A DNA stretch of 32,000 nt from Corynebacterium amycolatum (lineage in GTDB: Bacteria; Actinomycetota; Actinomycetes; Mycobacteriales; Mycobacteriaceae): the NCBI RefSeq assembly GCF_049243625.1, contig NZ_CP046975.1, one strand, 5' to 3'. The position numbers and the translations under genes are program-made. The notes beneath the pieces were generated by a model. That model ran no database searches, was not told where the DNA came from, and was given only the letters and a program-made list of their open reading frames with translations. The stretch's first letter is position 1; each line of letters opens with the position of its first letter. This document shows, in pieces, positions 7,750 through 26,698 of this stretch.

Positions 7750-8202
7750 ATGCCTACTCTTCTTGTCGTCCACCATTCCCCAACCCCGCTCCTGCAGGAA
7801 GTCTTAAGCCACGTGCTCGAGGGCGCCAACGATCCCGCGCTAGAGGGCGTGGATGTCAAGGTCGTCGAGGCTCTCGATGCCACCATCGACGACCTGACCA
7901 GCGCCGACGCCATCCTGCTCGGCACCTCCGCCAACTTCGGCTACATCTCCGGCGCGCTCAAGCACTTCTTTGACACCACCTTCCGGGAGGCTCAGGAAGT
8001 CACCAAGGGTTTGCCATTTTCCTACTGGATCCGCGGTGGCTTCGACACCACCGGCGCGGAAAATGCCATGAAAACCATCACGACCGGCTACAAGTGGGAG
8101 CTTGCGGCCGAACCCGTCGTGTTTGTCGGTTCGCTTGACGACGACATCTCCGACCGCCTAGTAAATCTCGGTGGCACCATGGCTGCCCAAATTTTGGGCT
8201 GA
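7750..8202 (+). CDS. Flavodoxin-like fold protein (NAD(P)H-dependent oxidoreductase family)
   Basis: 150 aa. Flavodoxin-like layout: LLVVHHSPTP, ILLGTSANFGYISGALKHFFD. Confidence 0.75.
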   Translation: MPTLLVVHHSPTPLLQEVLSHVLEGANDPALEGVDVKVVEALDATIDDLTSADAILLGTSANFGYISGALKHFFDTTFREAQEVTKGLPFSYWIRGGFDTTGAENAMKTITTGYKWELAAEPVVFVGSLDDDISDRLVNLGGTMAAQILG

Positions 8203-9509: not shown

Positions 9510-9755
9510 TCAGCGGGCGAGGTGGAAGGTAGTAGCTTCCGGGAGGGGGAGGTGGGGGCTTCGTCGTAAAGCGTGCGGGAGATGGTAGACAAAGCTGTCT
9601 AGTTGGTGTTAGGGTGGGCGACACGATCACAAGATATCGACGAGAAATGGCCTTTGACAGCGTCGATAGGCAACCGCCCGATTCGCGGACCCGGTGCCCC
9701 AAAGGAAGATCAGCCCCACAGACCGCCTGCGGGGAAGAGCGAATAGGAGCGCCAA

Positions 9756-10109
9756 ATGCACACCACAATCAGCGACGTCCACATCATCCACCTCAGCCGT
9801 CACACCGCTGACCTCCTCGTCGACGGTCGACCCGTCGCCATCCGGCTGCAAGAAGCCGACATCGACCCCCACTCCCGGAATCTCGTCCAACTCCCCGTCG
9901 ACCCCGCCTTCTACGCCACCCTCCGCGGCCAACAACGCGCCGACTACCTCAGCGCCCACGTCCGCGACGGCGTACGCTACGGTCGCATCCTCTGGCATGA
10001 GCTTGACGACGGCCGCCACTTCCTCACCATCCCCACCGTCGGTGGCTACCACGTGCACCAGGTCTTTGAAGTCCGCCGCAGCCGTGAGGGAGTGTGGAGT
10101 CGGCACTGA
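9756..10109 (+). CDS. Hypothetical protein
   Basis: 117-aa ORF with an AGGAG RBS 7-8 nt before the ATG. Protein-like composition, no recognised family. It contains one copy of each over-represented motif. Confidence 0.6.
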   Translation: MHTTISDVHIIHLSRHTADLLVDGRPVAIRLQEADIDPHSRNLVQLPVDPAFYATLRGQQRADYLSAHVRDGVRYGRILWHELDDGRHFLTIPTVGGYHVHQVFEVRRSREGVWSRH

Positions 10110-10143
10110 GCTTGGTGCAGTGAGCTTCGCGTGATGGATGCGG

Positions 10144-10251
10144 CATTGCGTGGATGAGCGCGGCGCGTGGATGAGCGTGGTGATGAGCGCGGCGCGTCTG
10201 ATGTAGTGAGCGCGGCGTTGCGTGGGTGAGCGTGGTGATGAGCGCGGCGCG
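10144..10251. repeat. Degenerate tandem repeats (GTGRTGAGCG[CGGCGC] units) upstream of amn
   Basis: The 32-nt block GCGTGGATGAGCGTGGTGATGAGCGCGGCGCG (10165-10196) recurs at 10220-10251 with one mismatch. Shorter related units flank both copies. Confidence 0.75.
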
Positions 10252-10287
10252 GATGCGAACGGGAAACTCTCCGCCTAGCCTTGGGAT

Positions 10288-11808
10288 ATGCAGGTACGAG
10301 ACTCCGCAACACCCCCGTTCTGGCCCACCGAGGGCGAAGGCGATTTCTACACCGACCCCGCCGCAGCCGTCGACCGGCTCACCGAAATCCACCGGGCAGG
10401 AATGGCCTACCTAATCGAGCAGTACACCGCCGCCACTAACGGAAATTCCGGGAGTGGGCCGGTGCGCGCCTACTACCCCGAACTACGCTTCACCGTCCCA
10501 GCCGGCAGCGCCGTCGAGGATGTCGACCCCTCCCTGTCACACGGCTTCGTCGACCGCCCGGGAGTGTACGCCACCACCATCACTCGCCCGGTGATGTTCC
10601 GCACCTACCTCATAGAGCAAATCAACGACCTGCTCGCCAACCACGGTGGCGAAGTCGAGGTGCGCGTCTCTGACCAGCCCATCCCACTCCGGATGTGCCG
10701 CGGCTTCGATGCGGCCGCCGAGGAAGCGGCGGGGAGGGAAGGAGCGTCGGCAAGCGCGTTGGCGGCAGTGGAGAAAACGTTCACCCCCATCGACTCCGCC
10801 TGCATTGACGACACCATCGCCGACGGCGAAGCCGACTACCTGGGCCTTCCCATCAAACCTTTGAGCCTCTTTACCGCCCAGCGCATCGACCTCGCCCTCC
10901 AGCGCCTCGAGCATTACACCGGGTCGCACGCCGCCAACATCCAGCGCTTCGTACTGTTCACCAACTACCAGCTGCACACCGACGTGTTCCTCGAGTACGC
11001 CGCCACCCTCACTCCCGGAAATCCCCGCGGATACACGGCGCTGGCGTGCCCGGGTGGGAAGCGCTACGACATCGGTGCCATCCCCACTCCCGGAATTTGC
11101 CGTCAGCACGCGCACGCCTCGCAGATGCCGGCGTACCACCTGCTTCGCGACGACCAATGCGGCATCACCATCATCGACATCGGCGTCGGCCCCTCGAATG
11201 CCAAGACCATCACCGATTGCCTCGCCGTCACGCGCCCGCACTGCTGGATGATGGTTGGACACTGTGCTGGCCTCGACGGCCGCATGCGCATCGGCGACAT
11301 GATTCTCGCCAACGGCTACGACCGCGCCGACGGAGTCCTCGACAACTACGTGCCCCTGGAAAAGCCCATCCCGCCGATTGCGGAAATTCAGCTCGCCGTC
11401 ACCAACGCGCTCGCCCGCGTCTCCGGACTTTCCGGCGATGAGCTGAAAAAGCGCCTACGCACCGGCACCGTGCTGTCGACCTCCGATCGCAACTGGGAGT
11501 GGCGCTCCCAGACCGACCTCTACCGGGAGCTGCAGAAATCCACCGCCATCGGCGTCGAAATGGAATCCGCCACCATCGCCGCCAACGGCTACCGCTTCCG
11601 CGTGCCCTACGGCGCGCTGCTCAGCGTCTCCGACATGCCACTGCACGACAAACCCAAACTCCCGAAATCTGCCCGCGAGTTCTACCAATCCTCCAAGGAG
11701 GAGCACCTCATGGCCGCCGTGCGCGCGTGCGAGGACATGGCCACCGCTCCCGACACCCTCCACTCCCGGAAGTTGCGTCGGCCGGTGGGAGAGGTTGCGT
11801 TCCGGTAG
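10288..11808 (+). CDS. amn: AMP nucleosidase
   Basis: 506 aa. Amn-like N-terminal domain plus a nucleoside-phosphorylase-type catalytic domain (GITIIDIGVGPSNAKTITD, MMVGHCAGL, GVEMESATIA). Confidence 0.88.
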   Translation: MQVRDSATPPFWPTEGEGDFYTDPAAAVDRLTEIHRAGMAYLIEQYTAATNGNSGSGPVRAYYPELRFTVPAGSAVEDVDPSLSHGFVDRPGVYATTITRPVMFRTYLIEQINDLLANHGGEVEVRVSDQPIPLRMCRGFDAAAEEAAGREGASASALAAVEKTFTPIDSACIDDTIADGEADYLGLPIKPLSLFTAQRIDLALQRLEHYTGSHAANIQRFVLFTNYQLHTDVFLEYAATLTPGNPRGYTALACPGGKRYDIGAIPTPGICRQHAHASQMPAYHLLRDDQCGITIIDIGVGPSNAKTITDCLAVTRPHCWMMVGHCAGLDGRMRIGDMILANGYDRADGVLDNYVPLEKPIPPIAEIQLAVTNALARVSGLSGDELKKRLRTGTVLSTSDRNWEWRSQTDLYRELQKSTAIGVEMESATIAANGYRFRVPYGALLSVSDMPLHDKPKLPKSAREFYQSSKEEHLMAAVRACEDMATAPDTLHSRKLRRPVGEVAFR

Positions 11809-11824
11809 GGCACTTTCGGGAGTG

Positions 11825-11867
11825 CGTCGTCAAGCCCGTTTGTGCAGATTGTGCATGCTTTACGACG
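11825..11867. repeat. Inverted pair of the GCTTGACGACG motif forming a hairpin downstream of amn
   Basis: CGTCGTCAAGC (11825-11835) and GCTTTACGACG (11857-11867) form an 11-bp stem with one mismatch and a 21-nt loop. The stem begins 17 nt after the amn stop. Confidence 0.65.
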
Positions 11868-11928
11868 GCTGTGGACAACGCCAAAAAGCGATTGAAGCCG
11901 TCCCCTCCCGGACGCTAGCCTTAGCCCC

Positions 11929-13107
11929 ATGACGACATTGGGACTGCTCAGCGCGCTGGCGACACGGGGGATTGACGTGCTCGCCGACCTGCGCGCCGCA
12001 CTCCCGGAAAAATCCACCGGGCACCGGGAGTTGGCGGCCAGCATCGGCTTCGACCCCTTCCGGCTCAAGCGCCTGCTGTGTTGCGCCGAGCGGCTGTTCG
12101 GCACCGTCGAGAAGGATGTTGATGTCGAATCCCGCGACAAAGCCGTCGCGATTGCCCGGGAGCTAAAGCTGTCGCTGGACACGGTCATGCAGATCGACAA
12201 GCGCTCCGGGCAGCTCAACAATGTCGAAATCCGGGAGTACTACCGCCTGGACTTCACCCGCGCCGCCGCGGCCTACGACTTCGAGGGCCTCGACACCTAC
12301 ATGCGGACCAAGGTCAAGGAGCTCAACCGCACCGACGAGCCGCCGCAGCACCTGCGCGCCCACGTCTCCCGGAATCCGGACATTCGCGGGATGAAGCACC
12401 TGCAGGTCACCGGTCCGGCGAACATGATTGACGACCTGGTCGCGCCGCTGACCGTGCGTGCAGCCGAAATCGCCAAAGCGCACGAGGACTACACCCGGGA
12501 TCGGTGCGTCGGTCAAGCGCTGGCAGAGCGCCTGGCGCACGGGTCGGAAGGGCCGCTTGACGACGTCGATAAGCTCCGTTACCAGCCCGCGCTCATCGTA
12601 ACCGCGCAAGACATCGTGGAGTACAGCCCGCGGTTTGCGGCGACCTCCAACGGCTCCGTCCTCACTCCCGGACAATTCGTCGAGGCGCTGCTCGCAGACA
12701 CCGGCTGGGTGCTGGTCTACGACGAGCACAACACGCCGACCGACCTACTCCCGATGCACAACCCGCGCCTGGCGACGGAGGAGCAGCGCATTGCGATGAT
12801 CCTCGACAACCCCATCTGCGCGTGGCCCGGGTGCCCGCGCCCCGCCCACGCCGGGCAGGCCCATCACCTGGTCGCCAGGAAAAACGGGGGCGCCACGACC
12901 ATGGAAAACATGGTTATGACCTGCAAAGAGCACAACGCCGCCAACGATGACGACAGGCAAGGCCTCAACGGGCACCTCGAGCGTGACGACGGCTCCGGCG
13001 CGGTCTACCGTCACCCGCCGTCTCCGCACGCGCCGCCCGAATTCAACCTTGCCTTCCCGACAGCTCTCGCGGGGCGGGCCTACTCGGGCTACCGTCAGCG
13101 CGAATAG
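11929..13107 (+). CDS. DUF222/HNH endonuclease family protein (13E12-repeat-type actinobacterial HNH protein)
   Basis: 392 aa. C-terminal HNH module (CAWPGCPRPAHAGQAHHLVARKNGGATTMENMVMTCKEHN) after a long helical N-terminal region typical of DUF222 proteins. Confidence 0.82.
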   Translation: MTTLGLLSALATRGIDVLADLRAALPEKSTGHRELAASIGFDPFRLKRLLCCAERLFGTVEKDVDVESRDKAVAIARELKLSLDTVMQIDKRSGQLNNVEIREYYRLDFTRAAAAYDFEGLDTYMRTKVKELNRTDEPPQHLRAHVSRNPDIRGMKHLQVTGPANMIDDLVAPLTVRAAEIAKAHEDYTRDRCVGQALAERLAHGSEGPLDDVDKLRYQPALIVTAQDIVEYSPRFAATSNGSVLTPGQFVEALLADTGWVLVYDEHNTPTDLLPMHNPRLATEEQRIAMILDNPICAWPGCPRPAHAGQAHHLVARKNGGATTMENMVMTCKEHNAANDDDRQGLNGHLERDDGSGAVYRHPPSPHAPPEFNLAFPTALAGRAYSGYRQRE

Positions 13108-13111
13108 CTTT

Positions 13112-13138
13112 ACATATATACCCGTAGGGGGTATATGT
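13112..13138. promoter_or_regulatory. Putative CsoR operator in the cop promoter
   Basis: ATATACCC-gtagg-GGGTATAT: a G/C tract flanked by an AT-rich inverted repeat. It lies 7-30 nt upstream of the copZ start. The architecture resembles known CsoR operators, and csoR is encoded in the same operon. Confidence 0.65.
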
Positions 13139-13144
13139 TGGGGT

Positions 13145-13354
13145 ATGGCTAATCAAACTTTTACTGTTACTGGCATGACATGCGGGCACTGCGAGGCGTC
13201 GGTGCGGGAGGAAGTCTCTGAACTCCCGGGAATCACCGATGTCCAGGTTGACCGCTCCCGGAATTTCCTCTCCGTGACTTCGGAGGCAGACATCGACACC
13301 GCTGCCGTAATCGCAGCAGTGGATGAAGCTGGCTACAAGGCGGTCGCAAACTAA
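13145..13354 (+). CDS. copZ: Heavy-metal-associated (HMA) copper chaperone
   Basis: MANQTFTVTGMTCGHCEASV... is a single HMA domain with MxCxxC. The start is placed at ATG 13145. The longer track ORF (from 12947) overlaps the HNH gene. Confidence 0.88.
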   Translation: MANQTFTVTGMTCGHCEASVREEVSELPGITDVQVDRSRNFLSVTSEADIDTAAVIAAVDEAGYKAVAN

Positions 13355-13379
13355 CCCCCCCAAAAAAAGAGGAAAGTAG

Positions 13380-15578
13380 ATGTCCGAGCAGCAACTTCTC
13401 ACTCTTGATATCCCCGTCGGCGGGATGACGTGTGCGTCGTGCGCAAACCGTATTCAACGCAAGCTGAACAAACTTGATGGAGTTAACGCGAGCGTGAACT
13501 ATGCGACCGAGAAGGCGCATGTGGAGGCGCCGGCGGACATCAACCCGCAGCAACTCATCGACACGATCGTGGCGGCAGGTTACACTGCTGAGCTTCCGCA
13601 GGAGGAGTCCGAACAGGAACCGGAAGCTGCTCCCGAAGAAAAAGACCGGGAGCTGCAGGACCTGCGCAATCGCGTCGTCGGCGCTGTCATCCTCACGGTT
13701 CCCGTCATCGCGATGTCGATGATTCCTGCCCTCCAATTCACTAATTGGCAGTGGCTGTGCCTCACGCTCTCGGCGCCGGTCTTTGTGTGGGCCGGCTGGC
13801 CGTTCCATCGCGCGACGCTGAAGAACCTGCGTCATGGTGAAGTCACCATGGACACGCTGATCACCATGGGTACGACCGCCTCGTTCCTCTGGAGCGTCTG
13901 GGCGTTGTTCTTCGGGCGCGCCGGGCTGCCGGGGCTTAAGCACGAGTTCCACTTAACGGTCACTCCCGGCGATGCTGATATGAACATCTACCTCGAGGCG
14001 ATGGCCGGCATCATCATGTTTGTGCTGCTCGGTCGTTATTTCGAGAAGCGTTCTAAGCGCAATGCTGGTCAGGCGCTCCGGGAGTTGATGAAGCTCGGCG
14101 CCAAGGAGGTCTCCGTTCTCGAAAGTTCGGGAGTGGAGAAGCGGCTGCCCGTGGAACAGCTCCGCCCGGGAGTGGTGTTCGTCGTTAGGCCTGGTGAGAA
14201 GATCGCGACGGATGGCGTTGTCGTGGAGGGTGCGTCGGCGGTGGATGCGTCGATGCTGACCGGAGAGCCGATGCCTGTCGAGGTCGGCCCTGGCGATGAG
14301 GTGACAGGGGCGACGATTAATACGTCTGGGCGGTTGCTCGTGCGGGCGACGCGCGTGGGCTCGGAGACGCAGTTGGCGCAGATGGCAGCGATGGTCGAGG
14401 CGGCGCAGACGGGCAAGGCACCGGTGCAGCGGCTAGCGGACCGGGTTTCGGGAGTGTTCGTGCCCGCCGTCATCGCGATCGCCGTGGTCACGCTCGGTGC
14501 GTGGTTGCTCACGGGGCACGGCGCGAGTGAGGCGGTCACGGCTGCGGTCGCCGTACTCATTATCGCGTGCCCGTGTGCGCTTGGCTTAGCGACGCCCACA
14601 GCGCTCCTGGTCGGCACGAGTGAAGGTGCCAAGGCGGGTGTGTTGCTGCGCGGCCCGGAGGTGCTGGAGTCGGCGCGGAAGGTCGACACGGTTGTGCTGG
14701 ATAAGACCGGCACGGTGACTACGGGTGTGATGGAGTTGACGGAGGTTCCTCCCACTCCCGAAAATCTGGTGCCGCTTGCCGCTTCGGTGGAAGCGGCGTC
14801 GCACCACCCGATTGCGCAGGCAATTGTGCGTGCGGCGGATCCGGATTCCCTACTCCCGGTTTCTGATTTCCGGGATATTCCGGGAGTGGGGGTTGAGGGC
14901 ACCGTAGACGGCCACCGCATCGAGGTCGGCCGCTCCGGGGAAAATTCCGGGAGTGGGGGGACGGTGGTTGCGGTGCGCCGCGACGGCGAGCTCCTGGGCA
15001 CGTTGGAGGTGTCGGATTCGGTGAAGCCGACGTCGGCGGCTGCGGTCGCGAAATTCCGGGAGTGGGGAGTGCGGCCGATTCTGCTGACCGGCGACGCCGC
15101 CGGCCCTGCGTTTCGCGTTGCGGATAAGGTCGGTATTGCTCGCGAGGACGTGATTTCGGGAGTGATGCCGGAGGATAAGGTCGCGACGATTGAGAAGTTG
15201 CAGGCCAGCGGCGCGTCCGTGGCGATGGTCGGCGATGGCATTAATGATGCTGCGGCTCTTGCGCAGGCGGATTTGGGCATGGCGATGGGCACGGGCACCG
15301 ATGTGGCGATGGAGGCCGCGGATATCACGCTGGTGCGTGGTGATTTGTTGGCGGCTGCGGATGCGCTGCGGTTGTCTCGCCGGACGCTCCGCACGATTCG
15401 GTCAAATCTTTTTTGGGCGTTTTTCTACAACGTTTTGGCAATTCCTGTCGCCGCACTGGGGTTGTTGAATCCGATGTTGGCTGGCGCTGCAATGGCGTTT
15501 TCGTCGGTTTTTGTGGTCGGCAACAGTCTGCGTCTGCGCGGTTTTCTCCGAGTCAAACAGAAAGTTAAAAAGGAGTAA
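13380..15578 (+). CDS. copA: Copper-translocating P1B-type ATPase
   Basis: N-terminal GMTCASC HMA domain, CPC motif ([12 protein letters not shown]), DKTGT phosphorylation site, GDGINDA hinge. Confidence 0.95.
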
Positions 15579-15581
15579 TTC

Positions 15582-15929
15582 ATGAGTGAGTCTTGTTGTT
15601 CGTCTCAATCGCATTCGCTTGACGACGGTTCTTGCTGCCATGACACCACTGATCCCGGTTATCTTTCGGAGAAGCGGCGTTATGAGTCCCGTATTCGTCG
15701 CATTGAGGGGCAGGTTCGTGGCATTGGTCGGATGATTGAGAACGAAGAGTACTGTATCGATGTTTTGACCCAGATTTCGGCGGTGAATTCGGCGTTGAAG
15801 TCGTTGGCGTTGACTCTTCTGGATGCTCATCTTCATCACTGTGTGGTGCATGCGGCTGAGGGTGGCCAGGAGGAGTTGGATGCCAAGCTGGAGGAGGCCT
15901 CGGCGGCAATCGCTCGGCTGGCTAAGTAA
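15582..15929 (+). CDS. csoR: CsoR-family copper-sensing transcriptional repressor with a Cys-rich N-terminal extension
   Basis: DUF156/CsoR core (IRRIEGQVRGIGRMIENEEYCIDVLTQISAV...HLHHCV). Extra N-terminus MSESCCSSQSHSLDDGSCCHD. The start is 4 nt after the copA stop. Confidence 0.9.
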   Translation: MSESCCSSQSHSLDDGSCCHDTTDPGYLSEKRRYESRIRRIEGQVRGIGRMIENEEYCIDVLTQISAVNSALKSLALTLLDAHLHHCVVHAAEGGQEELDAKLEEASAAIARLAK

Positions 15930-15951
15930 CTCCCGGAAAAATTCCGGGAGT
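15929..15951. repeat. Perfect 23-nt palindrome ACTCCCGGAA-AAA-TTCCGGGAGT abutting the csoR stop codon
   Basis: 10-bp arms with a 3-nt loop. The first base is the last A of the csoR TAA. No U-run follows, so terminator function is not established. Confidence 0.9.
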
Positions 15952-16127
15952 GGGGTGGCCGTCGTGAAGCGAAACGGCGGTCAGCGGTCGGTGGTCGGGT
16001 GCCGTCTTTTGCTTTCGGTTGTTGGTTGCACTGGTGGTGTCGATAGTGCCACTTGAATTCTACGTTTCCCCTGTTCGTCGGCGTGTTTTGGGAAAATCGG
16101 ATTTGTTGGGTAGTCTTTAACGACGTT

Positions 16128-16213
16128 GGAGGATTCGACTAGCGGCCTATGTCACACGCCTGGAACGCGTGCGGGAGTCACATCCCTCGTGGGTTCAAAT
16201 CCCACATCCTCCG
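16128..16213 (+). tRNA. tRNA-Ser (anticodon GGA)
   Basis: Manual cloverleaf: acceptor GGAGGAT/ATCCTCC, D stem GAC/GTC, anticodon stem CACGC/GCGTG with loop CTGGAAC, long variable arm (GGGA/TCCC), T arm GTGGG-TTCAAAT-CCCAC, discriminator G. CCA is not encoded. Confidence 0.9.
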
Positions 16214-16215
16214 CA
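16197..16215 (+). repeat. attL core (AAATCCCACATCCTCCGCA; T-loop to 3' end of tRNA-Ser)
   Basis: Exact 19-bp direct repeat of 22012-22030. Confidence 0.9.
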
Positions 16216-16328
16216 AATGGGAACCCTCAGGTAGAAAACTACCTGGGGGTTTTCCCGTATCCATGCTGGTAAGGCACCATAAAGCATACACAATAAGTAT
16301 TGACTCGTCTCAACTGATATCGTTTGAA

Positions 16329-16351
16329 CTGTCACGAAAAGCTGTCACGCG
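16329..16351 (+). repeat. 23-bp block CTGTCACGAAAAGCTGTCACGCG (two CTGTCACG octamers), putative recombinase arm-type sites
   Basis: An exact copy lies at 21933-21955 in the same orientation. The block is located between attL and the int start codon. Confidence 0.8.
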
Positions 16352-16386
16352 GCGGTGGGCACGCACGCGAAAGGTTTTCACCTTTA

Positions 16387-17526
16387 ATGGCACGCAGAAC
16401 AAAGGGGCTTACCCCCCTGCCGTCTGGAAACGTCCGGGCACGCTACCAACACAAAGGCCGGACTTACTACAAGACTTTTCCTAACATGGAGCAGGCGAGA
16501 GCCTGGCGAAGCAAAGAGCTAACATTAATCCACGATGATGTTTGGACTCCGCCGGCCGAAAGAGAAGGTAGAAAGAAGCGCACCGGGCTAACGGTCGCTG
16601 AGTATTTCGAGACCCTGCCAACGAAACGGAATTGGGAACCGACCACAGAACGCGGTTACAGGTCAATGTTCACCAACGACATTGCGCCGACTTTCGGAGA
16701 AATGCACCTAGCGGCGATTACACGCGCCGAAGTACGCAAATGGTATGACAGCATGGTCAAGGCCAATAAAGACCGTAAAAAGCGGAATAGGGACGTTTAT
16801 AGCCTGCTTAAAACGATCTTCTCCCAAGCGGTTGAAGATGAACTTGTCCAAGTCAGCCCCGTGAACATCCCAGGAGCGTCTACGCGACCGTCTGCCAAAA
16901 AAGAGCAGGAGATCCCCACGGCACAGGAGTTCGCCAAGCTAGTTGCCGCAGTCCCCGAACGGTATCGAGTCCCCACAATGGTCGCAGCCGTGTGCGCGCT
17001 ACGCATTGGCGAATGGGCGGAACTTCGCCGAAAAGACGTGCGTAGGGACTCGGCTACAGGGGTTATGAAAGTCCACGTATGCCGACAAGTCCGTGAAGCT
17101 AAAGGGAAAAGCGGAAAGGTTGTGGTGCCGTTTACGAAGACCAAACAGGATCGTTGGGTCACAGTACCCGCCGCAATCGTTCCTGCACTTGAACAGCACA
17201 TTGGCACCTATGCAGGGGCGGGGCGTGACGGTTTACTGTTCCCGAACAAAGAAGGGGACTGGGTAGACCGTCGCCGCTTTAATCGAATGCTCAAGGCCGC
17301 ATGTCACGAAGCGCTGGGACATGACAATATCCATAGCCACATTCTTCGGCACTATGGCGGTACTCAATTCGCTATGGCGGGCGGCACAATGGCTGAGACT
17401 ATGGCGAGGTTGGGGCACACAACTACGTCAGCGGCTTTGCGTTATCAGCACGCGGCCGAGGTGCGCGATGTTGAGGTCGCTAACCGCATGGTTATGCCGT
17501 TGGTTGCGGTGCCAGACGTAGCGTAA
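16387..17526 (+). CDS. int: Tyrosine-type site-specific integrase
   Basis: Catalytic pattern R (ALRIGEWAEL), HxxR (HILRHYGG) and Y (ALRYQH), with an N-terminal SAM-like domain. The start is set at ATG 16387 (MARRTKGL...). The track start at 16324 would run through the arm-type repeats. Confidence 0.9.
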   Translation: MARRTKGLTPLPSGNVRARYQHKGRTYYKTFPNMEQARAWRSKELTLIHDDVWTPPAEREGRKKRTGLTVAEYFETLPTKRNWEPTTERGYRSMFTNDIAPTFGEMHLAAITRAEVRKWYDSMVKANKDRKKRNRDVYSLLKTIFSQAVEDELVQVSPVNIPGASTRPSAKKEQEIPTAQEFAKLVAAVPERYRVPTMVAAVCALRIGEWAELRRKDVRRDSATGVMKVHVCRQVREAKGKSGKVVVPFTKTKQDRWVTVPAAIVPALEQHIGTYAGAGRDGLLFPNKEGDWVDRRRFNRMLKAACHEALGHDNIHSHILRHYGGTQFAMAGGTMAETMARLGHTTTSAALRYQHAAEVRDVEVANRMVMPLVAVPDVA

Positions 17527-17548
17527 GACGAGAAGTAAAAGGCCCACC

Positions 17549-17585
17549 CCCCGTTGTGATGTCTATCACACAACGGGGTTTTTCT
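17549..17585 (+). terminator. Intrinsic terminator after int
   Basis: CCCCGTTGTG (17549-17558) pairs with CACAACGGGG (17569-17578), followed by TTTTTCTT. Confidence 0.75.
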
Positions 17586-17670
17586 TACCCACTGGTTCGC
17601 AAGCGCATGCGAGTCTGGCCATGAATAAAACACACGTTCCCTTAGTTGTTTGGTGAGTGAAAACTAGTCC

Positions 17671-17710
17671 CTGTAGACCCCTGTAGGTCACTGTAGGCCA
17701 CTGTGTGCCA
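17671..17710 (+). repeat. Four head-to-tail 10-bp repeats CTGTAGACCC CTGTAGGTCA CTGTAGGCCA CTGTGTGCCA
   Basis: Read directly from the sequence. The period is exactly 10 bp, in the AT-rich int-xis intergenic region. The nearby palindrome CGCATAATATGCG is at 17731-17743. Confidence 0.85.
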
Positions 17711-18020
17711 TAAGATGAAACGCAAGAAAAACGCATAATATGCGATATGTTGCAATATATTACGTGTTGCAAAAACGAGACAGCTAATGATAAAGCGAGT
17801 CAAGAGAACCTGACACCAGCACAACCAGGCCAAACAAGATAATATATGTCGTATCCAAACAAGTCATTACCTTCGACACATCACTTCGATTCAGTGCGTG
17901 CCCACCACGTAAGGGGGTAGCGACCCGTTTGGATGATCACCCCACTTAGAGCCAGCTACAGCCACCAAAGCAATACAAGGAAGAGTGAGAACGAGTAGTT
18001 AAGAAAGAGAGAAAATCTAA

Positions 18021-18200
18021 GTGGAAACATCATCTAAATGGGTTAAAGTTTCCGAAATTGCGAACGAATACGGCCTAACTAAAACAACCGTCTACAACCT
18101 CGTTCGTGACGGAAAAATCGAAGCTAGCTACATCACGAAACGACAGCTCCGCATCAACCGCGACTCTATGCAAGCGCACGTCAAAGCAAACGCCGCATAA
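18021..18200 (+). CDS. xis: Excisionase-family helix-turn-helix DNA-binding protein (59 aa; not in the ORF track)
   Basis: The GTG start is preceded by a purine-rich stretch (AAGAAAGAGAGAAAA). The translation VETSSKWVKVSEIANEYGLTKTTVYNLVRDGKIEASYITKRQLRINRDSMQAHVKANAA has the MerR-like/excisionase HTH pattern. Confidence 0.75.
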   Translation: METSSKWVKVSEIANEYGLTKTTVYNLVRDGKIEASYITKRQLRINRDSMQAHVKANAA

Positions 18201-18234
18201 GACAACCGCAACCACACAGATACGGAGAACCATC

Positions 18235-18375
18235 GTGATCAATATCAAGAAAATCGCAACCAGCGCCGGATACAACACAACTACCGGCACCGATCTCAAA
18301 GCAGAACCGGACACAATCAACCTGCAAGCCCTCAGCGACGATCTACGCGCATACGAGGATCTAACCGGCGAATAG
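18235..18375 (+). CDS. Small hypothetical protein (46 aa), or the N-terminal part of a longer gene interrupted by TAG
   Basis: GTG 18235 has GGAG 8 nt upstream. The upstream part of track ORF 18106-18375 overlaps xis out of frame. The gene ends at TAG 18373-18375, in the same frame as the next open stretch. Confidence 0.4.
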   Translation: MINIKKIATSAGYNTTTGTDLKAEPDTINLQALSDDLRAYEDLTGE

Positions 18376-18936
18376 CCCGCTGACGAACTGATCGAGCAGC
18401 ACCTAACCGCCTATCAGTGGTGCCACACATGCAGCCACAAACCAGGCTCACCAGTTCGTAATGGCATCGCATGGCAAATCGGCCTAGACACCGGAACCTA
18501 CGGCAACACCACCGAACTGCTACTAAGCCGCCGCCACCGCCGGCAGCTCCCTAACGTCCCGAAAGTCCGCGATTGGGAACTATTCGGCGCCGACGAATAC
18601 CTAGCCCGGCGCCAATGCCGCGAAGAAAAGCGACGCAGCCAGGGCAACACTCAGCCGGGCGGGTTTTACGACTCATGGACACCACGCGACCAGCTCGAAC
18701 GTTTCGGGTTCGTAGAGCCTGTCACAAGCGAACTGCTAGGCGCCGTGACCACGCACGACACCGGTAACGCCGTGAATTTCTGGCAGCGTAGCGACACCCC
18801 GGCCGTGGTGTACGTACAGACCACGACACAGGAAAAGGAGGGCGTAGCAGTCCCCTTAGACGGGGAAGATCTGTACTGGCTCGCTGAGGTTATCACGGAG
18901 ATTCTGGCAGACCAGGGCGAGGGGGAGATTAGCTAG
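18376..18936 (+). CDS. Hypothetical protein with an unresolved start
   Basis: 187 codons are open directly after the TAG at 18373. No ATG, GTG or TTG occurs in frame until GTG 18745 (the track ORF 18745-18936). The upstream 123 codons still look coding (WCHTCSH..., RQCREEKRR...). Confidence 0.4.
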   Translation, partial: PADELIEQHLTAYQWCHTCSHKPGSPVRNGIAWQIGLDTGTYGNTTELLLSRRHRRQLPNVPKVRDWELFGADEYLARRQCREEKRRSQGNTQPGGFYDSWTPRDQLERFGFVEPVTSELLGAVTTHDTGNAVNFWQRSDTPAVVYVQTTTQEKEGVAVPLDGEDLYWLAEVITEILADQGEGEIS

Positions 18937-19523
18937 TGACCACAGCAAAAACCCCCGGTTGGGAAACCCGGGGGCTAAATAAAGAGCTAAAAGGTGCGCG
19001 TAGCAATTATAGCGTATCCCCGCCGGTAAAGCCTATGGTTTGGGAAACGTTAGCGGAAGAAGCCTTAGCGCTACTAGCGTCCTGCACTGCTGAAATGACC
19101 GTGTACGTAATCAATCAGCACAAACTTAACGCGCAGCATTTTCCCGCGCTCTACAAGCTGGCATACCTAGACATTTCCAAGCGCGCCCATGCCCTCGTAA
19201 AGAGCGGTAAACCGTTAGACCGTGTGGACATGGTGGAGGTCGGTCAATGGCTACAGGAACAGCAGGAACGCGCCGGAACGCAGGTGTGGCGACGTATCAC
19301 CGGCAATCAACTGTTTTCCCCAGCCGTGCCGTATGGAATGGCGGAAACAGCGCTAATCGACCGCGCCGTAAAGGAGTTGAAGCAGCAACACAAATTCCAG
19401 TCGATTAACAACGTTCGGGAATACCTTACCGACTACTTGAACACCGGAGATCTTAAATACGCGATGTTGGCCGGGAACCGGCTCGCAGAGACGCTCAAAG
19501 ACTGGAAAGAGGTGGCAGTATGA
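18936..19523 (+). CDS. Hypothetical protein (195 aa)
   Basis: The GTG start overlaps the previous stop (TAGTG), suggesting translational coupling. No family recognised. Confidence 0.6.
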   Translation: MTTAKTPGWETRGLNKELKGARSNYSVSPPVKPMVWETLAEEALALLASCTAEMTVYVINQHKLNAQHFPALYKLAYLDISKRAHALVKSGKPLDRVDMVEVGQWLQEQQERAGTQVWRRITGNQLFSPAVPYGMAETALIDRAVKELKQQHKFQSINNVREYLTDYLNTGDLKYAMLAGNRLAETLKDWKEVAV

Positions 19524-19553
19524 TAAGCCCTTTTGAAAAATATCTACATGTCA

Positions 19554-19640
19554 CTGAGATTAGAGATTGGGGTTATTTATACGCTTTGACCTGCTTTAAT
19601 ATGTCTCAATTCCGTATTGAGATTGGCTGAGATTGGGGGG
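19554..19640 (+). repeat. Four GAGATT(GG) repeats plus a TCTCAAT/ATTGAGA inverted repeat immediately upstream of the primase gene
   Basis: GAGATT at 19556, 19563, 19619 and 19629. The inverted repeat is 19604-19610 with 19616-19622. Confidence 0.75.
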
Positions 19641-19645
19641 TTGAA

Positions 19646-21175
19646 ATGCAAGAAAAACTGTATGTGTTCAGCTCGTCTACCAGTCTCGATAATGCCGATG
19701 TACTCTACCGGCAGGTTTTTAAGGTTGATGGGTACGCCACTCTGTTCCGCAAGGAGTGCGGGGATTATTACTTGTGGTCTGATGGGGTTTGGGCTGACTG
19801 TCGTCGCAGTCGCGCGGAATCAGTACTAGCCAACCGGCTTGTTAATGCCCGTGTCCGCGCGATTCGGCCACCCTTGACGGGCGGGGGCGCAGGGTCGGCG
19901 CTCGATGATCCGCAGGAGCGGGAAGAGCAGCAGTCCCTAGAGTGGTCGGCGTCTAAGGTAGTCGCACTCGTTGACGGCATGGGGCAGCTCCACCCGTATG
20001 AAGAGCAGGATCTGGAAACCTCGCAGCGCTATATTGGTATGGCTAATGGCATGTACGACGTGGACACGGGGGAACTGCTGGACTGGTCTCCTCGGTTTGG
20101 TAATGAGTGGCGACTTCCGTTCGACTACCAACCCGAAGCTACGTGCCCAACGTTCGATAGCTACCTGGACTCGATAACGGAGGGCCTGCCACAAACGAAG
20201 AGGTTCCTACTGCAGTGGCTCGGCTATCTCGTATCCGGGCGGACGGACCTGCAAAAGGGTGTGTACTTGATGGGTGCAACCCGCTCGGGTAAGTCAACGT
20301 TCGCAGATGTATGCGCGGCATTGGTTGGGGAATCTAACACGGCGGCACCACGCGGAGACGTGGGGCAGTTCTCTACAAAGCAGTGGGAGGGTAAAAGCCT
20401 GGTGGCGTTTTCCGATGTCCGCAGCGTCAACGACCCCCGCAAGCTCGCTGAGATCCTGTTGCAGGTTATTGGCAATGATCGGGTGACCGTGGAGGGTAAA
20501 GGCAAAGATGAACGCACCGTTCGGCTCCATTCGCGGGTGATGGTCTGCTCCAATACTGCAATCCCTATTTACGATATTGCCGGGGTTGCCCAAAACAGGT
20601 TCATTGGCGTGTACCTGCCTATCTCATTTAGGGGCAAAGAAGATAGCGACCTGGGGCGGCGTATCGCGGCGGAAATGCCCGGCATTTTTAACCGCGCCCT
20701 CGATGGGCTGGCAGACCTCGAAAAGCAAGGAACATTCACTGAACCGGAACAACATGGCTACGTCATGGACCAACTGCGGATTGCAGGGTCAGCCGTTTCA
20801 GAGTTCTACAGCGAAGCGCTGGAAGCTGCTGGCATTGAGCATGTGCTGAGTGTGCAAGACATTAGAACCGCACTCGACGCATACCTCACAAGGCAGGGAA
20901 TCACTAAGGTTCCACGGGAGGAAAAGACTCTCAACGGCATCGAAGGGCGCTGTGCCCAATTGGACTATGAAGTCTCCAAACCTAAAGACGATGACGGAAA
21001 GAGTTGGCGCTGTGTCTCGGGCGTGAAGTTCACAGCACAGTTCGCCACCTATCGCACGACCCACAGCGACAACGCGGAGCGTGCTCGAAACGCACAGGCG
21101 CGCAGGGGCGACAAACCCAACATGCAACCACGAGACGAAAAAGCCGGTCACCCCGCACAGCTACAGCTGAATTAG
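19646..21175 (+). CDS. Phage/plasmid primase-helicase (P4/D5 family, SF3 NTPase C-terminal domain)
   Basis: 509 aa. Walker A GATRSGKST. The surrounding region is typical of D5_N/P4-family primase C-terminal domains (FLLQWLGYLVSG..., VAFSDV, VMVCSNT). Confidence 0.82.
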   Translation: MQEKLYVFSSSTSLDNADVLYRQVFKVDGYATLFRKECGDYYLWSDGVWADCRRSRAESVLANRLVNARVRAIRPPLTGGGAGSALDDPQEREEQQSLEWSASKVVALVDGMGQLHPYEEQDLETSQRYIGMANGMYDVDTGELLDWSPRFGNEWRLPFDYQPEATCPTFDSYLDSITEGLPQTKRFLLQWLGYLVSGRTDLQKGVYLMGATRSGKSTFADVCAALVGESNTAAPRGDVGQFSTKQWEGKSLVAFSDVRSVNDPRKLAEILLQVIGNDRVTVEGKGKDERTVRLHSRVMVCSNTAIPIYDIAGVAQNRFIGVYLPISFRGKEDSDLGRRIAAEMPGIFNRALDGLADLEKQGTFTEPEQHGYVMDQLRIAGSAVSEFYSEALEAAGIEHVLSVQDIRTALDAYLTRQGITKVPREEKTLNGIEGRCAQLDYEVSKPKDDDGKSWRCVSGVKFTAQFATYRTTHSDNAERARNAQARRGDKPNMQPRDEKAGHPAQLQLN

Positions 21176-21273
21176 GGGTTTATCTCAGCAATCTTAGCGA
21201 ATCTCAACCACTGAATACGCTGCATTATTGCAGTTCAGAGACGGTATCTAGGGGCTTATCTTCCAATCTCAGT
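21173..21273. repeat. Reverse-orientation copies of the GAGATTGG repeat and a ~22-bp direct repeat just 3' of the primase gene (candidate replication origin)
   Basis: CCAATCTCAG (21263-21272) is the exact reverse complement of CTGAGATTGG (19627-19636). AATCTC occurs at 21200 and 21265. TAGGGGYTTATCT..CAATCT occurs at 21173 and 21249, flanking the palindrome CTGCATTATTGCAG. Confidence 0.55.
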
Positions 21274-21663
21274 GTTTTGCAAAATTCTCCACTGAAAAAC
21301 ACGACAACACCAGCCGGGGATAAGTCCTAACCCGTCCAACATTGATGAAACTGTCACGTGCCCAACTCGTTCCCGGGCGCACGCGCGCGCGGTATATAGT
21401 CCAGAAACAAAAGAGCGCTGTGGCTCGTTTTAAGCGCTTGGGGGCTACTTAGGTATGTGCGCTTATCGTTCAACGCTTTAGAAGTGATTTGTGAACAGGG
21501 GTTTTGCAGAGTTTTGGGCGGGGCACACCGTCTATCGCCTAGCGAGACGCTAGAGCCTACGCGCACCGGGCTAAACCACGGCAGGGGCGGGGTATAGGTG
21601 CACCGCGCGACAATTTCCCCTACGCCCCGGTATCAGCCCGGCGCGCCGGGCGGGTCTAGTGGG

Positions 21664-21888
21664 TTACTCAGCGTCCATGTGTTCCCGCATGGCTCGATTG
21701 AATACGTCGGCAATATCGGCGCCCGCGTTTCGGTCAATGCTGAGTATCTGGTCTGTGATGATCTCTAGGTGAGTATCGGTGATTGGTTCGCCCTCACCGG
21801 GACTTGGTACGCCTGGGAACATTGCGGCCATGAGAAGGCTGGATAGCCCCTCATAGATCCGTTCTGTGAGTGTTGGCTGAGTGTCCAT
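21664..21888 (-). CDS. Small acidic hypothetical protein (74 aa)
   Basis: The start is set at ATG 21888 (MDTQPTL...) with AAGGA upstream. The longer track ORF (to 21939) would overlap the CTGTCACG repeats. Confidence 0.5.
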   Translation of the reverse strand: MDTQPTLTERIYEGLSSLLMAAMFPGVPSPGEGEPITDTHLEIITDQILSIDRNAGADIADVFNRAMREHMDAE

Positions 21889-21916
21889 AGTTGGGTTGGT
21901 TTCCTTTGGCTTTAGG

Positions 21917-21955
21917 CTGTCACGGACTGAGACTGTCACGAAAAGCTGTCACGCG
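21917..21955 (+). repeat. Three CTGTCACG octamers near attR, including the 23-bp block 21933-21955
   Basis: CTGTCACG at 21917, 21933 and 21946, with one further copy at 21351. All are on the + strand. Confidence 0.8.
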
Positions 21956-22011
21956 ACATGGTAAGCGGGTGAATAAGTGCCCCTCACCAGCGGAGGAGCG
22001 AAAAAGTGGCG

Positions 22012-22030
22012 AAATCCCACATCCTCCGCA
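22012..22030 (+). repeat. attR core (duplicate of the tRNA-Ser 3' end)
   Basis: Exact 19-bp copy of 16197-16215. Confidence 0.9.
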
Positions 22031-22036
22031 GATTGA

Positions 22037-22064
22037 AAACCCCCGGTTATCGCCGGGGGTTTTC
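22037..22064 (+). terminator. Intrinsic terminator, probably the original tRNA-Ser terminator displaced by the insertion
   Basis: AAAACCCCCGG-ttatcg-CCGGGGGTTTT immediately after attR. Confidence 0.75.
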
Positions 22065-22126: not shown

Positions 22127-23581
22127 GTGGTCATTATGTTTAATAAGCGCCCGAGAATCCGAAGAGCCGGTCGAGACCGTACAGGTGCTCCTTTCGGCTC
22201 TTTAGGTTCTGGCCGGAAATTACGAGCTGCCATCGCGGCGGTGTCGGCTGTATCGCTCGCCACGCTGGCGGCGGGTTGTGGTTCGGAGGCTCAGCAGGAT
22301 TCGGCGCCGGTACTGCGGATTATGGGTCCGGCGGATGGTTCGGATCAGTATACGCAGGCGGCGCAGAAGTGCTCGGATGCGTCGGGCGGGAAGTATCGCC
22401 TGGAGTATGACATTTCGGCGAAGCAGACGGATGATCAGCGTCTTCAGTTGGCTCGTCGCATTGTGGGCGGAGATTCCTCGTTCGACATAATGGGCCTTGA
22501 TGTGACGTGGACTCCGGAGTTTGCGGAGGCGGGCTGGGCGCTCCCACTCCCGGAAGATATGGCCGAGCGCGTTACGGAGGGTACCCTGTCGGGTCCGTTG
22601 GATACGGCGACGTGGCAGGATCAGCTCTATGGTGCTCCGTTGAATACGAATACGCAGCTCCTGTGGTATCGAAAGTCGCTGGTAGATGGCCCGCCGAAGA
22701 CGTGGGATGACTTAATCGCGACGGGGGAGAGGCTCGCCGATGAGGGCAAGCCGTCGATGATTGGCGTCCAGGCTGCCCAGTTTGAGGGCTCGGTGGTGTG
22801 GCTCAATTCGATGACAGCGTCGGCGGGCGGTCAGCTAGTCGCGCCGGATGGGCAGTCGGTCACAATTGCGGATAACGATGCCGCGGAGCGCGCCTTGAGC
22901 ACCATGCATCGCGTGGCCACGGCGAAGGGGCATGACCCGTCGATTTCGCAGTCGGATGAGAACCAGGCTCGTCTGGCATTCGACCGCGGCGATGCATTTG
23001 CGCAGGTGAATTACCCATTTGTTTATGCCGGTGCGAAGGAGAAGGCGGAGTCGGGAAATCAGGTGGCCAAGGAGGTCTTCGAAGACATGGCCTGGACCAC
23101 CTACCCGGCGATGGATGAGGGCACACCGGCGCAGGTCACGATTGGTGGCCTTAACCTTGCGGTGCCGTCGACGTCGAAGCACCCGGAGCTCGCTTTCGAG
23201 GCCATCGACTGCCTGCGCAATGAGCAAAACCAGCTCAACAACGCGTTGAAGGGTGGTCTGCCGCCGACGTTGGCGAAGCTTTACACGCAGGCCACGGATG
23301 AATTCAAGGAGGAATACCCGTTCTACCGCGAGATCTACGAGCAGTTGAACACGTTGGAGGAAGCCGATTCGGCTGAGCTGTCGCAGGAGGAGCGGGCGCT
23401 GTTACCGTCGCCACGCACGGCCGGTGTGGTGACGCGCCCGAAGTCCCCTGCGTACCAGTCGTTGTCGATTTTGATGGCGTCGCGCATTAGTCCACCGGAG
23501 GATGTTGATGCGAAGTCGCTGGTCGGCACGCTTGATGAGGAACTTCAGGCGGCCGTGAACTCGGAAGGCCTGGTGCCGTAA
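22127..23581 (+). CDS. Sugar ABC transporter substrate-binding lipoprotein (LpqY-like)
   Basis: Signal peptide with lipobox LAAGC. Family-1 solute-binding protein length. First gene of an SBP, two permeases and ATPase operon whose order and sizes match LpqY-SugABC-type trehalose importers of Corynebacteriales. The substrate is inferred only. The start could be 22127 or ATG 22136. Confidence 0.82.
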   Translation: MVIMFNKRPRIRRAGRDRTGAPFGSLGSGRKLRAAIAAVSAVSLATLAAGCGSEAQQDSAPVLRIMGPADGSDQYTQAAQKCSDASGGKYRLEYDISAKQTDDQRLQLARRIVGGDSSFDIMGLDVTWTPEFAEAGWALPLPEDMAERVTEGTLSGPLDTATWQDQLYGAPLNTNTQLLWYRKSLVDGPPKTWDDLIATGERLADEGKPSMIGVQAAQFEGSVVWLNSMTASAGGQLVAPDGQSVTIADNDAAERALSTMHRVATAKGHDPSISQSDENQARLAFDRGDAFAQVNYPFVYAGAKEKAESGNQVAKEVFEDMAWTTYPAMDEGTPAQVTIGGLNLAVPSTSKHPELAFEAIDCLRNEQNQLNNALKGGLPPTLAKLYTQATDEFKEEYPFYREIYEQLNTLEEADSAELSQEERALLPSPRTAGVVTRPKSPAYQSLSILMASRISPPEDVDAKSLVGTLDEELQAAVNSEGLVP

Positions 23582-26527: not shown

Positions 26528-26586
26528 AACTGTTGGCCTGGCAGTGGTGTGACTTTTTGTACGTAGCTGTAGTAGGCTGTCTTCAC

Positions 26587-26672
26587 GGATCCCATGTGGC
26601 GTCCATCTCGTGAACTCCCCCAGGGCAGGAATGCAGCAAGGGTCAGCGAGCTCTGACGGGTGCGTGGGGTCC
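26587..26672 (+). ncRNA. ffs: Signal recognition particle RNA (small/4.5S type)
   Basis: Domain-IV-like core CAGG-GCA-GGAA-UGC-AGCA-AGGG (GGAA tetraloop, conserved AGCA). Nested helices CUCG.UGA/UCA.CGAG and CGUC/GACG. Closing helix GGAUCCCAUGUG/UGCGUGGGGUCC followed by a U-run. The exact ends are uncertain by a few nt. Confidence 0.78.
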
Positions 26673-26698
26673 CCTTTTTTTATCCCCGGCGTTCTTCT

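Follow-up and report, generated by a model that had tools for sequence, protein, structure and literature searches.

A short DNA word concentrated around an HNH-nuclease-like gene of Corynebacterium amycolatum, and an independent word spread across the clade

We analyzed a 32,000-nucleotide stretch of Corynebacterium amycolatum DNA (contig NZ_CP046975.1 of assembly GCF_049243625.1, hereafter the window) in which two short words, A (GCTTGACGACG) and B (ACTCCCGGAA), recur far more often than chance allows. Word B is gathered into a dense cloud centered on a gene for an HNH-nuclease-like protein, whereas word A, which is independent of B, is spread through the Corynebacterium clade. A first-pass annotation had read the two words as modules of a single oriented palindromic unit that pairs into hairpins at the 3′ ends of genes; its observation is partly confirmed by our analysis, and its interpretation is partly supported. 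We draw throughout on sampled loci and on a 49.5-kb extended region (window coordinates −8883 to 40634, joined from neighboring loci with gene calls added), using sequence data only. Match counts within the window allow at most one mismatch unless called exact. The core ACTCCCGG represents B in comparisons among loci, and GCTTNNCGACG represents A in a count over 156 kb.

The locus and its two words

The window sequence is identical over the overlap to GCA_054653755.1, GCA_029338415.1, and GCA_014335175.1 and is 94–95% identical to C. amycolatum SK46 and to one Corynebacterium metagenome-assembled genome (MAG), which places it in the C. amycolatum complex. Its 5′ part carries tgt, an ABC ATPase gene, a GluRS-like gene, an Nramp gene, a SAM-IV riboswitch with a small open reading frame (ORF), and amn. 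The HNH-like gene follows, then copZ, copA, csoR, a tRNA-Ser gene, and a 5.8-kb integrated island; beyond the island lie a sugar ABC transporter, the RNA of the signal recognition particle (SRP), SulP, aspartate aminotransferase, and dnaX. The island adjoins tRNA-Ser(GGA) (window 16128–22064), encodes an integrase, an HTH_17 protein, and a D5_N/DUF5906 primase-helicase, and has an att-like repeat at 22012–22064. Neither A nor B occurs within its 5.8 kb (16216–22011). The two features on which the argument turns are these:

11929–13107, plus strand: HNH-nuclease-like gene, 392 amino acids, at the center of the B cloud
16216–22011, no strand assigned: integrated island beside tRNA-Ser, missing in some strains (L003, L004), serving as an internal negative control

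Word A has 24 matches in the window against 1.03 expected, a number reached in none of 100 shuffles, and word B has 33 against 1.95; the exact copies number 12 and 15, respectively. Both words are present where the first-pass annotation had placed them, and no k-mers of the window rank above them at any k from 8 to 14. The longer consensus that it had anticipated was looked for, and neither word extends past ≈11–14 nucleotides. The consensus of A is GCTT[G/T]ACGACG and that of B is (cc)CACTCCCGGAA(wtt), and neither is palindromic. Because the consensus stops at this length, we regard A and B as words rather than elements. Approximately 85% of the copies are intragenic.

Both words are kept at the DNA level, are scattered across coding DNA, and are sometimes paired into gene-end hairpins. 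We aligned the window with SK46 and the MAG (pairwise differences 5–6%) and matched expectations by codon position. None of the 55 columns within window-exact A copies varies (5.7 expected, P = 0.002), nor does any of the 121 columns within window-exact B copies (9.7 expected, P = 3e-5), which bears out the earlier claim that the words themselves are maintained. Third codon positions within B are invariant as well (0 of 37, against 17.8% of background third positions). The sole change at these copies is that SK46 has lost 12 bp, in frame, at one B site (14945–14954). A protein-level origin of the words was rejected, their copies lying in different genes, frames, and strands; for the frame that A favors, codon usage predicts ≈0.03 copies by our own arithmetic, and 13 are seen. 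Our literature search turned up nothing relevant on the words themselves or on any gene-centered word cloud, and a scan of a viral collection for CCCCACTCCCGGAA returned single chance matches only.

Word B around the HNH-nuclease-like gene

Twenty-five copies of B were counted in the 49.5-kb region, 20 of them between 9055 and 15952. The core ACTCCCGG is found 29 times in the same region, 23 times within 2.9 kb of the HNH gene; its median distance from the gene, 1.8 kb, is shorter than uniform placement would give (p<0.0001). When four loci are pooled, the density of B is 3.1 per kb inside the gene and 2.8–4.1 within 2 kb of it, and it falls to 1.9 at 2–3 kb, 1.0 at 3–5 kb, 0.5 at 5–7.5 kb, and ≈0.1 beyond. 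The background, measured over 106 kb from the clade in which the cognate gene is missing, is 0.028 per kb. The peak is symmetrical on the gene, and clustering on the gene is significant at every locus (p from <0.0001 to 0.006). Core copies are 80–90% intragenic, in both orientations and all three frames. Most word sites are fixed among 12 close genomes, and a few alternate between match and near-match. The cloud and the principal B sites of the window are as follows:

9055–15952, both strands: dense B cloud, 24 of the 33 window matches (at most one mismatch), in all three frames and intergenic
9055–9064, minus: exact B in the Nramp gene
9871–9880, plus: exact B in the small ORF 9756–10109
10446–10455, minus: exact B in amn
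11011–11020, plus: exact B in amn, position shared with C. lactis and L236
11086–11095, plus: exact B in amn
11762–11771, plus: exact B at the 3′ end of amn, position shared with C. lactis and L236
11903–11913, plus: B-like CCCTCCCGGAC, 26 nucleotides 5′ of the HNH start, exact ACTCCCGGAA in 4 of 12 related genomes
12000–12031, no strand assigned: inverted pair of B cores, ACTCCCGGAA ... CACCGGGAGT, in the 5′ part of the HNH gene
14878–14887, minus: exact B in copA
14945–14954, minus: exact B in copA, the site of the SK46 deletion
15054–15063, minus: exact B in copA, in a different reading frame
22546–22555, plus: exact B in the solute-binding protein gene, in the tail of the cloud
26317–26326, plus: exact B in the MalK-like gene

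The cloud recurs wherever the orthologous gene was sampled. The core is present in 30 copies around the gene in C. lactis (locus L235) and in 24 copies in a more distantly related one (L236, protein identity 73%), and no copy lies in the first 6–7 kb of either locus. Many B sites are common to the window, C. lactis, and L236; others are lineage-specific, several of them at small indels. The cloud is common to species just 71–78% identical in DNA, with lineage-specific gains in a lineage-specific dialect. Sites found only in L236 mostly end in GGAC or GGAG and shared sites retain GGAA; in L242, a locus of another lineage in which a 55%-identical relative sits between pknB and aroG, the words mostly end in GGAG. 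Since the new sites of L236 and those of L242 differ in their ending from the shared sites, the word drifts together with the protein. In C. lactis both the HNH-like gene (329 + 62 amino acids) and copA (540 + 198 amino acids) were called as split (L235 10001–11175 and 11516–13701), which reflects either frameshifts or sequencing errors.

At L242 the cloud comprises 31 copies of ACTCCCGG, again centered on the gene. The syntenic pknB-aroG loci of Corynebacterium sp. H78 and C. sphenisci (L261 and L262) have no such gene, and these two empty sites contain one and five copies, where a Markov model predicts 0.6 and 1.9; they are only 65–78% identical in DNA to L242 and are too divergent for reconstruction of the target. 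Compared codon by codon with both empty-site orthologs, 17 of the 21 coding words of L242 carry different amino acids, mostly in variable segments (for example, PTPGV versus PEARP). Another three use conserved residues through synonymous codons, such as CGG GAG TTx for R-E-F/Y/L, and one is a four-codon insertion.

A paralog 57–59% identical to the window protein lies beside glyA (L237, L238, and L240) and has a word of its own, ACATCCGGAC. In the form ACATCCGGA(C) this word occurs two to seven times per locus (five and seven in two of the three loci) from −2.8 to +2.7 kb of the paralog, nearly all between −0.6 and +2.7 kb, and nowhere else in the locus. Word B is essentially absent there, with 0–1 copies of ACTCCCGG in 21 kb. 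Five metagenome samples contain both types of locus, each with its own word only, and A is present at ≈18 per 21 kb in both; because both loci come from the same five samples, we conclude that one organism harbors two paralogs with two different clouds. In both paralog groups a cognate word stands 26 nucleotides 5′ of the start codon. A 47%-identical member of the family lies on a 9.7-kb contig (L243) that carries CCACCTCGA eight times without mismatch (≈0.1 expected). The sequence could be a fourth cognate word or one spread through the whole genome of that organism, two readings that so short a contig does not separate.

Could these clouds have arrived with imported DNA? All words might be uptake signals, with A resident and the B-rich and ACATCCGGAC-rich patches recombined in together with the HNH gene from donors rich in those words. 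All three words do look like DNA uptake sequences (DUS) or uptake signal sequences (USS), being short, non-palindromic, present on both strands, mostly genic, altering variable protein segments, and occasionally arranged as inverted pairs; the decay length of a few kilobases would suit recombination tracts, and the words are missing from the recently acquired island. Restriction to a few kilobases around one gene family is, however, unlike any prediction of an uptake model. No B-rich genome was found among those sampled, two different words surround two paralogs of one organism, and distantly related species share the cloud while gaining sites in their own dialect. Our literature search found no report of competence or uptake signals in Corynebacterium. 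Divergence among strains is equal inside and outside the cloud and continuous across it, and A density within it is normal, so the cloud is not a recently imported block, and a recent foreign origin is rejected on present data. We consider import through uptake signals unlikely.

The direction of causality might instead be reversed, with a B-rich stretch existing beforehand, for example as a set of sites bound by a host DNA-binding protein, and a mobile HNH gene inserting preferentially into it because its nuclease targets the word. Solitary insertion at three loci is what a mobile nuclease gene would produce, and words do lie right at the ends of the ORF. The empty sites, which have no cloud, are difficult to reconcile with this order of events, as are the symmetry of the peak, the 3.1 words per kb inside the HNH gene itself, and a dialect that follows divergence of the protein. 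We regard it as quite unlikely.

Word A, word pairs, and hairpins

Word A behaves differently from B in that it is present at ≈0.8 per kb in every resident locus sampled from the Corynebacterium clade. It is evenly spaced in resident DNA (36 copies in 49.5 kb) and reaches 15–20 matches per 21 kb at loci without B. The sequence GCTTNNCGACG is found 130 times in 156 kb, comprising six loci of several species and including two separate loci of one organism. Within genes, 74 copies are sense and 34 antisense, whichever DNA strand carries the gene, and a single frame, xxG CTT nnC GAC Gxx, accounts for 66 of the 74 sense ones. Orientation tracks the gene strand (43:17 in plus-strand genes and 31:17 in minus-strand genes). 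A polar sequence of the Chi or KOPS type, with leading-strand skew, was considered and rejected, A following gene orientation and B lying on both strands. The following exact A copies are found in the window:

1782–1792, plus: in tgt, sense, frame xxG CTT GAC GAC Gxx
6440–6450, plus
8133–8143, plus
8275–8285, minus: intergenic
10001–10011, plus
12555–12565, plus: within the HNH gene
15617–15627, plus: in csoR, near its start
27894–27904, plus
30336–30346, minus: followed only by ACTCCCC, with no B

At the csoR position 15617–15627, A is present in the window, SK46, and the MAG, and B stands at the aligned positions of L235 (13741) and L236 (13926); one word appears from the alignment to have replaced the other. 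At each of the three insertion loci, word A is also found no more than ≈100 nucleotides from the ends of the HNH ORF (window 11825–11867; L235 9951; L242 11260; L240 11238 and 11279; ≈100 nucleotides past the stop codon in L237 and L238), and it may indicate what type of site the HNH gene inserts into.

The uptake words of Neisseriaceae and Pasteurellaceae are non-palindromic, 9–12 nucleotides long, over-represented hundreds-fold, and spaced at approximately one per 1–3 kb; they occur on both strands, often genic in preferred frames, form inverted pairs after genes, and are absent from recently acquired DNA. Word A, known here from its sequence alone, fits all the sequence-statistical features testable in our data: it is found in every locus sampled (156 kb), shows no replication-strand bias, and has both genic and intergenic copies. 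Such words also alter amino acids in weakly constrained protein segments (PMC2817400) and form species dialects (PMC3630211). The earlier suggestion of paired uptake-type signals is possible for A, which resembles one in these respects, and does not fit B, which is local; competence, a bias in uptake, and a receptor are not known for Corynebacterium. Given the result for B, an enzyme-driven origin of A is equally open beside the uptake reading.

The first-pass annotation had further listed six places where A precedes B on one strand, and had described hairpins after three genes. The features concerned are the following:

2455–2535, plus: hairpin after tgt, 81 nucleotides, near-perfect, −55.1 kcal/mol, z = −8.5
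9537–9572, minus: words after Nramp, A variant 9562–9572, 15 nucleotides, B variant 9537–9546
11814–11867, no strand assigned: words after amn, B variant 11814–11823 (minus), A 11825–11835 (minus), 21-nucleotide spacer, A variant 11857–11867 (plus)
15929–15951, no strand assigned: csoR hairpin, B on the plus strand at 15929–15938, loop AAA, inverted B on the minus strand at 15942–15951, beginning in the csoR stop codon
15960–15970, minus: A variant GCTTCACGACG, 8 nucleotides past the csoR hairpin
15989–16015, plus: terminator-like stem followed by TCTTTTGCTTTC, ≈40 nucleotides past the hairpin
26110–26164, plus: A 26110–26120, 34 nucleotides, B 26155–26164, in the MalK-like gene
28201–28233, plus: A 28201–28211, 12 nucleotides, B variant ACTCCCGGAC 28224–28233, in the SulP gene

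Downstream of csoR the arrangement is exactly as had been described, ACTCCCGGAA-AAA-TTCCGGGAGT-GGGGTGGC-CGTCGTGAAGC, and it folds stably (−27.7 kcal/mol, z = −5.5) and is kept in L164 and L230. No T-run follows the B/B′ stem, GGGGTGGCC standing there instead, so it does not qualify as an intrinsic terminator; the stem at 15989–16015 is the likelier intrinsic terminator of copZ-copA-csoR, judging from its sequence. The pair after amn, thought to be formed by the second word, in fact consists of two A words, and its fold is no more stable than that of shuffled sequence (z = −0.24). The hairpin after tgt is indeed very strong and far longer than a terminator requires; its outer arms are A-like (ACTTCACGACA / TGTCGTGAAGT) rather than B, and its core is a separate 40-nucleotide palindrome. 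A paralog locus contains its own word head to head, ACATCCGGAAATTTTTCCGGATGT, between convergent genes. We also scanned a genome collection for ACTCCCGGAA-N(0-20)-TTCCGGGAGT. Among the matches listed are >119 unrelated genomes, in which the stem is an ordinary terminator with a T-run, and Corynebacterium is represented in the listed matches only by the orthologous csoR site of two genomes. In a Chloroflexota MAG (FK_Sedi_A_Bin.40), the palindrome ACTCCCGGAATCTCSGAGATTCCGGGAGT is present on at least 11 contigs (L119, L120, L149, L158, L170, L171, L190, L209, L210, L214, and L231); it is an unrelated REP-like family that shares the B sequence by chance.

The stable structures after csoR, after tgt, and at the paralog locus, together with the use of the same stem as a terminator by unrelated bacteria, might suggest that the words are kept as inverted-pair 3′ hairpins (terminators or stabilizers of mRNA), with the genic copies as by-products. 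Few of the ≈60 copies in the window are paired, however, and single genic copies are conserved just as strictly. The csoR hairpin lacks a T-run and has a separate terminator-like site past it, and the amn pair is no better than shuffled. We find this account very unlikely.

Of the six A-then-B cases, five hold up (28201/28224, 26110/26155, 11825/11814, 15960/15942, and 9562/9537, with gaps of 12, 34, 1, 8, and 15 nucleotides), four of these requiring one mismatch in A, B, or both; the post-Nramp B variant (9537–9546) is polymorphic among strains. The sixth, said to abut A at 30336 with no gap, has no B word. The order is not fixed, sister loci giving one A-then-B pair against four B-then-A, one convergent, and one divergent. 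Inside the B stretch we see five close A–B pairs, and local densities predict ≈2.6 by our own arithmetic, so the count of close A–B pairs is unremarkable. The palindrome of ≈60 bp that had been proposed, of the form A..B|B′..A′, is present neither in the window nor in any related locus.

These results bear on the idea of a single ≈60-bp palindromic element with A as its outer and B as its inner module, akin to repetitive extragenic palindromes (REPs) or miniature inverted-repeat transposable elements (MITEs) and leaving half-sites as its remnants. The five A-then-B pairs of the window, none reversed, and the inverted A variant that follows the csoR B/B′ hairpin had pointed that way; A is abundant without B, B is limited to the neighborhood of one gene family, the order is mixed in sister loci, the consensus ends at 11–14 nucleotides with no full palindrome, ≈85% of copies are intragenic, and close pairs fit local densities, all of which leave a single oriented unit with hardly any probability. 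REP/REPIN-RAYT systems do resemble the present one in pairing a gene with a cognate repeat family that differs among paralogs, flanks the gene, and forms hairpins. REPs, however, are imperfect palindromes of 20–40 nucleotides that are intergenic and genome-wide and have an HUH/Y1 transposase as partner, and the words described here are 10–14 nucleotides long, non-palindromic, ≈85% genic, local, and partnered by an HNH protein, so they do not qualify as REPs on either count. Nor do we find the terminal inverted repeats, target-site duplication, and 50–500-bp body of a MITE, nothing being shared beyond the words.

The HNH-like protein as a candidate source of the cloud, and other features of the region

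The HNH-like protein has a CxxC..HH..N..CxxHN motif of the zinc-finger HNH type, intact and conserved in the alignment, and gives a weak match to Pfam HNH. Its family is small, with 12 clusters when grouped at 90% identity; among clusters at 50% identity, 407 are related to it at E≤1e-10. It was not found in viral contigs. None of 11 family members matches Pfam DUF222 at E≤1, and one remote relative (P0185) has matches to the DUF222 as well as the HNH family of Pfam; a search of NCBIfam and PDB sequences returned only IscB-type HNH matches, far below threshold. A structure model built from 11 sequences was unusable (predicted local distance difference test score, pLDDT, 52). A second model, from 56 sequences (pLDDT 84), has an N-terminal all-helical domain, a small beta region, and an HNH domain. 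Likeness to solved structures is weak and limited to the HNH part (a nicking HNH enzyme, McrA, and the Cas9 HNH domain). At each of three loci the gene stands alone as an insert flanked by conserved genes, and relatives provide two empty sites. An inverted repeat like two DnaA boxes (TGTGGATAA ... TTATCCACA) lies 5′ of the HNH-like genes, ≈75–100 nucleotides from the HNH start in L237, L240, L236, and L243. The glyA-locus paralogs (including L238 9890–9935) and L236 have the complete repeat, and the window has only the half-site CTGTGGACAAC (11866–11880); the repeat may be an operator.

The explanation that we favor, by a modest degree, is that two independent word families coexist and that the B cloud consists of the recognition word of the HNH protein, driven locally. 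Each word would be the recognition sequence of the adjacent HNH protein, which would act mainly close to its own gene. By starting biased short-patch repair or gene conversion, the protein would turn near-matches into matches, and the process would occasionally insert a word. Such a drive would be strong enough to alter amino acids in weakly constrained parts of neighboring proteins. The csoR hairpin at 15929–15951 would then be two B words that met head to head, and the A-then-B adjacencies would arise because both words are locally dense.

Several points weigh against this explanation. What the sequences show is the association of word and gene, its decay with distance, the paralog-specific words, the empty-site controls, the conservation of the words as DNA, and the rewritten codons; recognition of the word by the protein, its action in cis, and the conversion step are what we infer from these. 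The drive needs some new mechanism, because sites cut by a nuclease are normally lost by conversion, not gained. Sampled loci rather than complete chromosomes were compared, and B clusters at loci without the gene family are possible. Three independent insertion loci were sampled, the fourth (L243) being ambiguous, and the empty sites leave the origin of the cloud undated because of their low DNA identity to L242. Finally, the HNH gene of C. lactis appears split, yet its cloud is dense.

Known nuclease systems offer partial parallels, and each of the closest known systems, DUS/USS and REP-RAYT pairs included, departs from the present case in a defining trait. Free-standing homing endonuclease genes are likewise solitary HNH insertions with empty sites and a sporadic spread, the intact motif of the window protein agrees with that class, and the kilobase decay in the flanks recalls their co-conversion tracts. 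Homing enzymes, however, have one long target at the insertion point, which insertion destroys, whereas here there are dozens of short words; to our knowledge, homing endonucleases are not surrounded by dozens of copies of a short word. The DUF222-HNH proteins ("13E12 repeat" proteins of Mycobacterium tuberculosis) share the phylum, a similar size, and a C-terminal zinc-finger HNH, but the window protein has no DUF222 match and so falls outside that group, and the literature on DUF222/HNH and REP13E12 that we searched reports no word clouds. In Vsr/Dcm very-short-patch repair, sequence-specific nicking biases repair toward one word and thereby raises its frequency. That effect concerns words of 4–5 nucleotides and is weak and genome-wide, whereas the enrichment here is ≈100-fold and local.

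A broader statement, which we advance tentatively and hold to be rather less than probable as a whole, is that an HNH nuclease writes a word of 10–14 nucleotides around its own gene and overrides synonymous and non-synonymous sites of its neighbors, that paralogs write different words and the word co-evolves with the protein, and that A is perhaps the genome-wide product of a related enzyme. Hyper-abundant words have so far been ascribed to uptake bias, to REPs borne by transposases, or to repair bias. Word B is ≈100-fold above background only within a few kilobases of one nuclease gene, and its cloud goes with the gene to new loci, differs by paralog, and alters the essential neighbors PknB, AroG, and CopA. 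Should the nuclease be responsible, this would be a new kind of selfish or drive element that rewrites its own surroundings. It would also provide a natural instance in which DNA is rewritten locally in a sequence-directed manner, and a system well suited to studying how molecular drive builds words. If the statement were true for A as well, hyper-abundant bacterial words need not signal DNA uptake. We therefore caution against taking A or similar words as proof of natural competence.

The sugar ABC transporter genes (≈22.1–26.5 kb) are gone from some members of the complex (L246) and from C. lactis, in which csoR almost adjoins SulP. The small ORF at 9756–10109 has no family match. Two structured RNAs were identified with Rfam:

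9625–9745, plus: SAM-IV riboswitch, 48 bits, directly 5′ of the small ORF 9756–10109
26584–26678, plus: bacterial small SRP RNA, 65 bits, between the MalK-like and SulP genes

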